From sequence record MH992122.1: a DNA stretch of 64,000 nt, one strand, 5' to 3'. The notes beneath the pieces are model-generated. The model was not told where the DNA came from. It searched no databases and saw nothing but the letters and a program-made list of their open reading frames with translations. Positions 1 to 40,700 of the stretch are shown here, piece by piece. This stretch comes from Escherichia phage OLB35. The translations under genes and the position numbers were made by a program. Position 1 is the first letter of the stretch. The number at the start of each line of letters is the position of its first letter.

Positions 1-1531
1 GCTTCTTTAATTATTTCACCATTACGTTGAGCTGCAAGCATGTAACCTTTATGTTCTTTACGTTGATTAAAGACCTTAGTGATTTCAGTTGGAACTACAC
101 CATCACGGTCTTTATAATACATCATGCCGTTAGGAGAGCAACTGTACACATCTGAAGGACGTTCAGCGATTGCGTTAATATAATCATGCAATGGAGCTAC
201 TTTAAACGTTCCTGCTATTGTTTCTGGGCTAATATTCACTTGGCGAATAATACTTGGATACAGAGATGTAAGGTCGAAACTCATTACATATTTGTATCGA
301 TTTGGAATAGGTTCCTTAACAAAAGCGCCAGGATAAGGTTGAACCTGGTGAGAACGACCTTGTGGAATCACCTTGTTCTGCTCTTTAAGGCTATTAAAAA
401 TAATAACATCCCATGTTTTAATTGGGCTAAACACAGATTGAATCTGTATCTTAGCATAATAACCCATGTCCAAACTCAAGTTTATGAACTGGCGTTTAGC
501 ATCAATTTGCAATACACGATACACGTCGATAATGTTATAAGAAATATATCGTTGGTGATTACTTTCACGAAGTTTAGAAATAGGACCGTCATATTTCAGT
601 TTACCGACATTCAATTCAAATTCTGAAATGTAATCCAGAGAATACGACGGTTGGTTTGTGAAAGAGAATTTTTTGTAAAGGTCGATATAATCAAGAACAG
701 AGATACCGAACAATGTAATGATTTCACGAGAACCGTACATGTTTTCAATAACTTTAACACGAGTCTTGCGATACTGCAAAAACCTAGATCATTGTCGGGT
801 GGTGATAAACGTTTCGCAGTAGATTCGCCAAAAATATTCTTGATTCGGTTATACACATATGGAATATCAAATGACTCAACGTTCCATCCAGTCAAAATGA
901 CAGGAGTTTTCTGTTGCCAGAAGTTGAGATATTCCATCAACAATTCTTTTTCGTTATCAAACGGCATATAAATGATTTTATCAATAATTTCGGATGGAAC
1001 TTCATCACCACCTTGTTCTTGAAGCTTAGCAGCGATTTCAATAGACCATTCTTCTACATTACCATATGGAGAATTCAATAGATCAAATACGTAGAACCTG
1101 TCGTCAATTGAGTCATAATGGGTGATAGCATCAATCGGATGTTTTGCTTGTGACGGCTCAGGGAACCCATCCGGAGATGTTACTTCGATGTCGAAGTTAG
1201 CCACACGAATTTTTGTATGGTCGTATTTGATTTCATAGTTATAAGTGTCAGACAAATACGCCAATTTGAAATCGTCCATACCTAATGCTTCAAGACCAAT
1301 ATCTTCCATGCGTTTAATCCATTGGGAGGCATCACGCATATTAGCGAACAACTTACGAGTACACGGCTTACCGTAGATATCGAAATATTTAGTAGCCTGA
1401 CTTTCTGGACAATGAGCAAACAATGATGGTTTATATTCTACTTCACGAGTACGTTCACGGCCATTAGAATCGATGTAACGTTCAAAAATTGAATCACCAA
1501 TCTGTTCAACCGTTAAGTAAAATTCTTTCAT
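1..1531 (-). CDS. 43: DNA polymerase gp43 (B-family), N-terminal ~500 codons; frame interrupted near 775-800; gene runs off the window start
   Basis: From ATG at 1531: MKEFYLTVEQIGDSIFERY...FDIEVTS...GESTAKRLSP, RB69/T4 gp43-like exonuclease domain. Below ~782 the polymerase continues in a different frame (RKTRVKVIENMYGSR...SLYPSIIRQVNISPE...) to position 1. Confidence 0.9.
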
Positions 1532-34050: not shown

Positions 34051-34276
34051 CTCGGTCCCATGATTTGGCCATTAATTCGGACATAAATTCTTCAATGCGC
34101 GTTTCTTTAGATGGACTTTCACTATTAGAGACCGCAAGTTTGTAATCTGCAATAGGACAGAACATATCAAGGTCCATATTAAGATCGTCTTTGATTTTTT
34201 CTTCTGACACATCTTTATCATATGTGTACAGATAACTATCACATGATTCTGATTTAATGTAAATTGCTATACTCAT
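34040..34276 (-). CDS. Hypothetical acidic protein
   Basis: ~78-aa ORF. Confidence 0.4.
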   Translation of the reverse strand: MSIAIYIKSESCDSYLYTYDKDVSEEKIKDDLNMDLDMFCPIADYKLAVSNSESPSKETRIEEFMSELMAKSWDRDDE

Positions 34277-34764
34277 CTCAAATTCCTGCATTCGGTAATA
34301 AAACGTTCAACTTCATTATTCTTGGCCTTTATCTTGTCTTTACGTTCCTGTAAACTACTTTTAACAAGATTAATAATGATGCCTATAGTACCTCCACCAA
34401 TAATACCACCAATAATACTTACGATAGTAGATGCTAATAAGATAGCGATAATATCTAATATAGCAAAGGCACTTACTTTAGTACTAAAAAACCACACCGA
34501 TGGTACAAATATAATCCATCCTGTTATCCATTGGCACTTATTGAAAAACTTTTCAAGCTCAGCTTGAGTTGTTCGTATTACTTCATCGATAGGTTGATAT
34601 CCATTAATGTATCTGTTCACGATAATACCTGCTGGTTTGTCGATTTTAAATGCTTGACATTGGTGTTTCACTAAATAAGATGGACATCCTGTCCAATCTA
34701 CTGAATAGTATGAAATACCTTCGTTGCCATCGTCTATATTAGACCAATATGTTTTGTTAATCAT
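34273..34764 (-). CDS. Membrane protein with glycine-zipper C-terminus
   Basis: 163 aa; two TM segments including IIGGIIGGGTIGIIINLV. Confidence 0.5.
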   Translation of the reverse strand: MINKTYWSNIDDGNEGISYYSVDWTGCPSYLVKHQCQAFKIDKPAGIIVNRYINGYQPIDEVIRTTQAELEKFFNKCQWITGWIIFVPSVWFFSTKVSAFAILDIIAILLASTIVSIIGGIIGGGTIGIIINLVKSSLQERKDKIKAKNNEVERFITECRNLR

Positions 34765-35450
34765 TACCAGCCTTCCATAGGGAATTCCAGATAAACTTGG
34801 GCATTGACACGAATTTCATTGGTGATCTTTTTAACTCGGTCTGTATTACGAGATACACGTCCGAACCAACGCCATCCATTACTAATTGCACGAGAACCAG
34901 TGTGCCATGTTTGCCAATCGAACTGAAGAAGAGTACGGTCTGGAGCTTCCCATTTCTCTAGTTCGCCTTTTTCAATTTTTTCGAGGACTTCTTTGTGCCA
35001 TTGGCGATAGATAAGTTCGCCATCAGGAATCTGACTGAACTCTGCAGTTCCTGTTGCAAAATGAGTAGGACACACGTCAGCGTTAACAAGACCAAGAATA
35101 TGTTCAGACAAATAGCGAGGATTGTCATAGTCAGGTTGTCCTGCAGTAATAAAATGTTGACCAACCGGAATATCCCGGCGCGGTACATCATCATGGTGAT
35201 AACCTGGAATAGCAGGATACCAACCAGGCATCAGCATATGAACCCGAGAATCAAATACAACATGTTGATTAGTCCAATCAATTGGGAGATTGACAATAAA
35301 GCTACGAGTAATAGGACCGCCGTTATCCTAAGCAAATTTTAAACTACAGTTAAAGAACATAGGCTCGTTCTTGATTTGATCATTAGAAATACCGCCGGCA
35401 AAACCACCTACTGCACGAGCTTGACTATTAAACACTTTAGAACTATTCAT
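34764..35450 (-). pseudogene. 229-codon reading frame interrupted by an in-frame amber codon
   Basis: ATG at 35450 (MNSSKVFNSQARAVGGFAGG...SLKFA), TAG at 35328-35330, same frame continues (DNGGPITRSFIVNLPIDW...) to 34764; the track sees only the C-terminal 157 aa. Confidence 0.5.
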
Positions 35451-35451
35451 A

Positions 35452-35757
35452 TTATTTTCCTCGACATTCTTTAATGAAATTTTCTAGATTGGTAGATTCA
35501 ATAGCTTTTTTACGAGCTTCTGCGTGTTCTTCTTCAGACAATTTACATTTATAATTAACCCAGACGTTATGGTCAAAACTAGTCGTGGCATATAATAACA
35601 AAGCCCCGACGAATAATAAAAATGGTGATAAGAATACAAAACCAGGAACACCATCCATATCGTAAGCCTTTTGTAATACTGCAACAGAAAGAGCTACGTA
35701 AAAAGGTGATACAAATATAGTTAAAAGACCAATTCGGTTGGTTTCGCCTAATTTCAT
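35452..35757 (-). CDS. Membrane protein
   Basis: 101 aa with two hydrophobic helices. Confidence 0.5.
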   Translation of the reverse strand: MKLGETNRIGLLTIFVSPFYVALSVAVLQKAYDMDGVPGFVFLSPFLLFVGALLLYATTSFDHNVWVNYKCKLSEEEHAEARKKAIESTNLENFIKECRGK

Positions 35758-37321: not shown

Positions 37322-37595
37322 TTAACAAGTGTGAGAAGATGCAACCCAACCACCATCTTCAAGGCTCAAGTTGTAGTCGTATTGGTAAACGTCGGCCCAT
37401 TCAGCATAACCGTTTTTTTGTACAACGTTCAAGATCGGCTTTAAGATGTCCTGGTGAATGATAGGTTCCACCCATGCCATAAGCTGGATACAAGTTGAAT
37501 GTTGTGTTTTGTTTATTAGCAATTTCTTTGGCAGCCTCAATAGCTGCATAGATTTTTGCTACAGCTTCAGCCAGTTCGGTTTGTTCTTTAGACAT
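37322..37595 (-). pseudogene. WVSSSxxC-tail family member 2, frameshifted
   Basis: N-terminal frame (37595-37401: MSKEQTELAEAVAKIYAAIEAAKE...YGMGGTYHSPG) and C-terminal frame (to 37322: ...NGYAEWADVYQYDYNLSLEDGGWVASSHTC) each match the intact paralogue. Confidence 0.5.
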
Positions 37596-40152: not shown

Positions 40153-40700
40153 TTTGTTTCTCCTCTGTAGTTGATAAGTCTTAACTATAGTATCACCATC
40201 ATTGGTGTTTGTACATCATTATTTTTAATTTTTCCAACTTAACAACCTTCAGCCAAGATACAACAGAGTTTTTATCTGAGGATTCAAATTCAGGCATTGG
40301 ACTTTCACCGCGAATAACTTCTTCGGTGTATTCATAATCAACGACATCAATACTAACTTTAGCCATTTTGTTTCTCCTCTGTAGTTGATAAGTCCTATAG
40401 TATCACCATCATTGGTGTTTGTACATCATTTATTTTTAATTTTTCCAACTTAACAACTTGTAGTGTCCTTCATTCATACGTGGTTTATCCCAAGAAATAC
40501 TAATATATGATTCGCCATCAATAGCTTTTTCTTCACCACCACCACTGATAGTCCTCTGTAGTTGATAAGTCCTATAGTATCACCATCATTGGTGTTTGTC
40601 AACTATTATTTTTAATTTTTCCAACTTAAAACTTGTAGTGTCCTTCATTCATACGTGGTTTATCCCAAGAAATACTAATATATGATTCGCCATCAATAGA
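40085..40700. repeat. Three tandem copies of a ~160-230-bp module (gene 3' end, promoter, leader, gene 5' start)
   Basis: Core ...ttttgtttctcctctgtagttgataagtc(c/t)ta...tagtatcaccatcattggtgtttgt... recurs at ~40153, ~40366 and ~40549 with flanking duplicated coding ends. Confidence 0.8.
40199..40366 (-). CDS. Chimeric 55-aa ORF created by the duplication
   Basis: MAKVSIDVVDYEYTEEVIRG...; first 19 aa identical to the start of 39925-40152, then diverges. Confidence 0.3.
   Translation of the reverse strand: MAKVSIDVVDYEYTEEVIRGESPMPEFESSDKNSVVSWLKVVKLEKLKIMMYKHQ

Follow-up and report, generated by a model that had tools for sequence, protein, structure and literature searches.

The window analysed here is the whole 64,000-nt stretch of Escherichia phage OLB35 (MH992122.1). 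It derives from a Mosigvirus, that is, an RB69-like, T4-related coliphage, as the first-pass annotation had guessed from the letters alone, and the record closest to it is that of Escherichia phage CCU7 (97.5% over 16 kb); no record identical to the window was found in the phage collection. On the minus strand, an ATG at 35450-35448 opens a run of 40 codons (MNSSKVFNSQARAVGGFAGGISNDQIKNEPMFFNCSLKFA), the reading-frame translation of which ends in NCSLKFA and is cut off by a premature amber codon, TAG, at 35328..35330. Beyond this codon the frame stays open for 187 further codons (DNGGPITRSF...EFPMEGW) and is closed by a TAA at 34766-34764. Counting this final stop, the frame spans 229 codons; it would otherwise constitute a 228-codon gene, a homologue of RB69ORF132c, of which the amber occupies codon 41. 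The coordinates, peptide strings and codon counts of the earlier description, which had an amber interrupting a 229-codon frame, all proved correct, and so did its exclusion of a homopolymer artefact, codon 41 lying outside any homopolymer. The N-terminal fragment (codons 1-40, MNSSKV...CSLKFA; 35331..35450, minus strand) is homologous to family residues 1-40 and would be the sole part translated if termination at the TAG were normal. What follows the TAG (codons 42-228 and the TAA; 34764..35327, minus strand) stays in frame, is nearly undecayed and holds the invariant residues HHDD (85-88), H183, R194 and R198. The longest ATG-started ORF lying 3' of the TAG begins at Met72 and encodes 157 aa (34764..35237, minus strand); past the amber, no other canonical start codon (ATG, GTG or TTG) occurs in this frame, and Met72 has no obvious Shine-Dalgarno sequence.

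The split gene is located in an accessory region upstream of e.2, nudE and the lysozyme gene e, within the plastic e-to-tRNA region. Its upstream neighbour is a homologue of RB69ORF133c (35452..35757, minus strand), encoding a membrane-like protein of 101 aa and preceded by a promoter-like site (35814-35786); the TAA of this gene (35454-35452) lies one base upstream of the split-gene ATG, in the arrangement TAATATG. The downstream neighbour, e.2 (34273..34764, minus strand), encodes a 163-aa membrane protein (PF26896, Phage_T4_Y06M), the ATG of which overlaps the split-gene TAA (TAATG). Judging from this overlap, translation of e.2 may be partly coupled to that of the split gene, and early termination at the TAG might lower it. 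Elsewhere in the window, two other genes differ from their CCU7 counterparts at the N-terminus. In the homologue of XYS98129 (32339-32082, minus strand), the first 22 codons are unlike those of CCU7 and close with an in-frame TAA, after which homology to CCU7 returns (IGDAEDFGSLKRNGY...); this gene represents either a swapped N-terminal module or a second split gene. The homologue of XYS98136 (29886-29611) is diverged at its N-terminus in a similar way, and its stop comes 8 codons early.

Comparison with relatives showed that both sides of the TAG belong to one gene. The two parts align end to end (residues 1-228) with single, uninterrupted proteins of 228 aa at 94-96% identity, and the profile of PHROG 1843 (function unknown) was matched over positions 1-222 of 222. 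A single unbroken CDS of 687 nt is annotated at the locus in every relative examined, and a single ORF of about 225 aa was present in 80 IMG/VR loci, down to about 50% identity. Searching 5.8 billion proteins returned 1289 homologues, nearly all of about 228 aa; among phage records, the gene is present in 472, and in 457 of these the match is single and full-length. Family members occur in T4-like phages of Aeromonas, Klebsiella and Serratia, with more remote ones in phages of Mycobacterium and Gordonia. The N-terminal 40 residues, which include the motif IKNEPMFFN, belong to the best-conserved parts of the family. The residue aligned with the stop is Y, W, F, M, I, R, H, K, L, S or E, most commonly Tyr, in 87 related loci and in 59 proteins from the databases, none of which has a stop there. 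The first-pass annotation had left three options: recent pseudogenisation, an amber mutant propagated on a suppressor host, or two genes, the upstream one encoding a 40-aa peptide. It had proposed that orthologues stopping here and restarting downstream would speak for the last of these; no such orthologue was found, and the two-gene reading is refuted, because codon 41 is always sense in the 87 loci and 59 proteins. One gene broken by an amber codon is thus what the homology and the full-length PHROG 1843 match on both sides of the TAG describe.

No match to the RB69ORF132c-family protein was found in Pfam, in NCBIfam, or among PDB sequences below E = 0.1, and fold comparison was the only informative route to annotation. 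An AlphaFold model was built on an intact relative 95% identical to the split gene (mean pLDDT 90.9, pTM 0.88). In this model three strands and three helices are assigned to residues 1-73 (pLDDT of 90-98), and the stretch of residues 1-40 comprises one helix and three beta strands, all above pLDDT 90; comparison of the model with known folds indicated a double-stranded beta-helix. Across the family, H85, H86, D87, D88, H183, R194 and R198 are invariant, and these residues fit, at the level of sequence, the HxD...H...R signature of a metal triad (HxD/E...H) plus a basic 2OG-binding residue, with H86, D88 and H183 as the predicted triad. In UniRef, one cluster already bears the name 'phytanoyl-CoA dioxygenase family protein'. 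Solved dioxygenase structures share 8-15% identity with the phage protein and give TM-scores of only 0.3-0.4. Taken from the model, a predicted fold like that of Fe(II)/2-oxoglutarate dioxygenases can be assigned with confidence. The family is widespread and uncharacterised, and has no Pfam model.

Two allele classes were distinguished around codon 41. The W-type, represented by CCU7 and Shf125875, reads TGG GAT at codons 41-42, and the Y-type, represented by phage 55, LF82-1, JS09 and AlbertHofmann, reads TAT AAT. The window reads TAG GAT; the second position of its TAG (A, 35329) is the Y-type base, and the third (G, 35328) is the W-type base. At the 48 sites where the W and Y classes differ consistently, the window never carries a third base and follows, from 5' to 3', the order 20 Y, 1 W, 3 Y, 5 W, 1 Y, 15 W and 3 Y. 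A Y-type block resembling LF82-1 and AlbertHofmann (35329..35397, minus strand; gene nt 54-122), with 23 of 24 fixed sites of the Y class, is followed by a W-type block resembling CCU7 and Shf125875 (35241..35328, minus strand; gene nt 123-210), with 20 of 21 fixed sites of the W class, and this second block takes the last base of the TAG as its first. The main switch from Y to W accordingly falls between gene nt 122 and 123, that is, between bases 2 and 3 of codon 41 (Fisher, P = 1.3e-10). A second Y-type, LF82-like block (35109..35205, minus strand; about codons 82-114) holds the private change P92R (35176). Three codons are per-site chimeras of the two classes: codon 38 (AAA in the window, AGT in the W-type, GAA in the Y-type), codon 41 (TAG, TGG and TAT, respectively) and codon 53 (GTC, GCC and ATG, respectively). 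Within the whole gene (687 nt) only three bases are private to the window, namely P92R and two synonymous changes, and the upstream flank is identical to that of CCU7 and Shf125875. On a larger scale, at 1309 sites over about 40 kb where CCU7 and LF82-1 differ, the window agrees with CCU7 at 929, with LF82-1 at 367 and with neither at 13; such fine-grained mosaicism is expected of T4-like phages.

Codons 18-63 of the gene (window 35262-35397) are hypervariable among otherwise near-identical Mosigviruses (17 loci), in which the combinations HNVQ/GGIS/HEIK, S/E/N/K at residue 38, W/Y/F at residue 41 and TNQH/NTDQ are found. This pattern suggests frequent allele shuffling or diversifying selection.

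The window also carries other lesions of its own. The essential DNA polymerase gene 43, which starts at 1531 and runs off the left end of the window, contains a 26-nt insertion (CCGACAATGATCTAGGTTTTTGCAGT; 773-798, minus strand) placed within a His codon (C|AT) and shifting the frame. This insertion was absent from 118 related phage records, from IMG/VR and from GTDB genomes, and no source for it was found in the window, in IMG/VR or in GTDB genomes. The insert contains a TGA, after which the correct downstream frame opens, and a run of five T (GGTTTTTGC) lies in the frame overlap; that a -1 slip at this run restores the gene 43 frame is pure speculation, and the RNA fold at the insertion was not significant (z = -0.97). 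The insertion is either an assembly artefact or a feature deserving a look of its own. In the homologue of XYS98117 (90 aa; about 37595-37325), a small hypothetical gene, a run of seven A at 37413-37419 (minus strand) corresponds to six A in CCU7 and produces a frameshift; an exact match to the 121 nt around the run was found in none of 104 related records, the four closest being one base shorter, and the run has the look of a sequencing error in a homopolymer, or else of a frameshift private to this sequence. Lastly, a tandem duplication of about 175 nt (40375-40524 and 40552-40699) runs from the 3' end of one small gene across an early-promoter-like TTGACA...TACTAT element into the 5' end of the gene that follows, and its junction occurs in none of 139 related records.

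As to the origin of the TAG, two co-circulating sense alleles, TAT (Tyr) and TGG (Trp), could have exchanged during a mixed infection; homologous recombination or gene conversion, or patchy heteroduplex repair, would have joined them within codon 41, and a junction between codon positions 2 and 3 would have brought together TA and G to give TAG. Recombination inside the codon is proposed because the TAG sits exactly at the switch between the Y and W blocks. T4 has very short patch repair. Read from the sequence comparison, the stop most likely came from recombination or patchy repair between sense alleles and not from a new point mutation. The more specific account, natural intracodon recombination with very short patch heteroduplex repair producing a null TAG allele of the hypervariable gene, is offered tentatively. 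A rough likelihood ratio, which depends on simple assumptions, favours a junction over a point mutation by about 25-65; its inputs were a private divergence of 0.4-1.1% per site and a roughly 1-in-10 chance of a junction at this bond (10-nt uninformative interval). It is not very unusual in this population for neighbouring informative sites to switch (15 of 201 in a three-way comparison), and unsampled third alleles could exist. Parental or reciprocal haplotypes, the latter of which would read TGT (Cys) at codon 41, were not found in the phage collection (megablast with a 101-nt query; tblastn), and no phage record exceeded 90% identity across the full 69-aa mosaic query by tblastn. The TAG allele itself was absent from the phage collection (megablast, 101-nt query) and from IMG/VR (exact 23-mer), and a degenerate pattern detected no TAG on any allele background in IMG/VR or the JGI metagenomes; the positive control, a T-initial codon (TNN) at the same position, recovered 9 contigs, all sense. 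The exact 157-aa and 40-aa products had no record in the protein collection, and the literature on RB69ORF132c, Mosigvirus amber alleles and T4 heteroduplex repair held nothing directly useful.

A single-base mutation (TGG to TAG, or TAT to TAG) beside an older recombination junction would equally give a real nonsense allele. It is one step from either neighbouring allele and results in the same sequence; TGG to TAG, a G-to-A change, is the classic transition route to amber, private differences from the two genomes compared amount to 1.1% of sites in the window, and the gene carries other private changes such as P92R. Such a mutation would nevertheless have to hit the very site adjoining the block boundary and yield the base that the other class carries there; codons 38 and 53 are equally chimeric, and the likelihood ratio given above points to a junction; we consider this origin unlikely. 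Slightly better placed, though still on the doubtful side, is the view that the TAG is a base-calling, polishing or consensus artefact over a true TGG or TAT, produced for instance from a mixed W/Y population or by a reference-guided consensus over a segment that is hypervariable. The private 26-nt insertion in the polymerase gene and the private homopolymer frameshift make an assembly artefact a serious rival, such lesions being hard to square with a viable phage; in addition, codons 38 (AAA), 41 (TAG) and 53 (GTC) are all W/Y mixtures, as per-site calls on a mixture would give, and the TAG allele, seen in no other database sequence searched, rests on one sequence. Against this, the W and Y bases are arranged in long clean blocks (20 and 15 sites) and not as random per-site noise, a k-mer assembler has no way of changing strain from one variant base to the adjoining one, the quality of the window is good overall (frameshifts number only 2, beside about 108 intact homologous genes), and fine-scale mosaicism extends across the whole 40 kb, as real T4-like recombination predicts.

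The two remaining readings concern whether the full-length protein, or two proteins, could still be made. A conditional amber, with the full-length product kept by a supE (Gln) or supF (Tyr) E. coli host, draws on the record host fields, according to which related Mosigviruses were isolated on DH5alpha, a strain that carries supE44; position 41 tolerates many residues, Tyr most often, and by this criterion of sequence a suppressed protein would very likely be active, and the remainder of the gene is undecayed. The tRNA scan of the 64-kb window bore out the earlier statement that no amber suppressor tRNA is evident, detecting only tRNA-Arg(TCT) and tRNA-Met(CAT), and no other in-frame amber accompanies this one in the window genes that have CCU7 homologues. 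Moreover, a dispensable gene persists briefly without suppression, and recency explains the lack of decay equally well; maintenance by a suppressing host is therefore judged improbable. A genome-wide amber pattern or recoding was considered and rejected, as no in-frame amber occurs elsewhere in the window genes homologous to CCU7 and TAG is the normal stop of 5 of the 108 genes. That the locus holds two real genes, or undergoes programmed recoding or readthrough at the TAG, would follow from the bare ORF structure alone and is hardly credible: no orthologue has either a stop or a start at this point, no in-frame ATG, GTG or TTG lies between the TAG and Met72, the TAG splits a single predicted domain, and the stop is not conserved, in a window where a suppressor tRNA is absent and TAG is a normal terminator.

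In a non-suppressing host, translation would end after 40 residues. The resulting peptide would probably be useless according to the model, because residues 1-73, which are conserved, belong to the folded core (pLDDT 90-98) and the predicted catalytic core is missing from it; a product restarted at Met72 would be without residues 1-71, and hence without the N-terminal strands of the fold. The event appears to be recent, because the downstream 187 codons are nearly perfect, with 3 private substitutions in the 687 nt of the gene. Independent disruptions of the same gene were seen in other phages: an 86-nt deletion with a frameshift at about codons 36-64, within the hypervariable segment, in phage EP32a (cluster of 11 sequences), a 33-codon internal deletion in vB_EcoM_005, and frameshifts in an IMG/VR contig. 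From these losses, the gene is apparently dispensable and repeatedly lost. Among the three options of the first-pass annotation, recent pseudogenisation is the best supported, given the undecayed downstream codons and these independent disruptions. Overall, we regard it as somewhat probable that the codon-41 amber is a recent knockout, i.e. a young pseudogene, of a conserved, apparently dispensable accessory gene, likely arising from allele splicing. The hypervariable segment hosts both the TAG and the EP32a deletion, and it may be a recurrent breakage point for the gene family.

For annotation, the locus is to be described as a single disrupted gene, a pseudogene of the RB69ORF132c family, and not as a 40-aa ORF plus a 157-aa ORF, and the sequence calls for a check of the reads, because the DNA polymerase gene in this window is broken too. 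The finding adds modestly to the evidence that a widespread phage gene with dioxygenase-like features can be dispensed with and has been lost repeatedly. It would also illustrate neatly that a stop can be made from two sense codons when diverged alleles of T4-like phages recombine at a fine scale; if true, gene destruction by recombination of diverged alleles becomes directly visible, as a hybrid incompatibility at the level of the codon. It has no bearing on genetic-code variation or on the biology of suppression.

Set beside known systems, the locus resembles the amber alleles and young pseudogenes of T4-like accessory genes in having a lone TAG at a codon that every relative reads as sense, an otherwise intact ORF, a place in the plastic accessory region and independent losses elsewhere; it differs in that this TAG was seemingly built from two sense alleles at a junction and not by a new substitution, and no evidence makes it a laboratory amber mutant. 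As for the protein, the PhyH-like Fe(II)/2OG dioxygenases (EasH, EctD, proline hydroxylase H11, HygX and human PHYH) show no sequence-level match to the phage family, with identity of 8-15% and TM-scores of 0.3-0.4. Programmed readthrough and recoding by phage suppressor tRNAs share with it the in-frame TAG in a coding region, but here the stop is unconserved, a suppressor tRNA is absent, TAG is a normal terminator and other genes are unaffected. The closest parallel for the proposed origin is classical fine-structure intracodon recombination, reportedly seen in Yanofsky's crosses at trpA codon 211 and in T4 rII mapping, where two alleles differing within one codon likewise gave a third codon, as TAT and TGG would have given TAG here. 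The classical crosses were selected and restored function, whereas the phage event would be natural, unselected and function-destroying, and is deduced from comparative sequence only. The event is of a known kind, an instance of ordinary phage genome decay and not a new coding trick.
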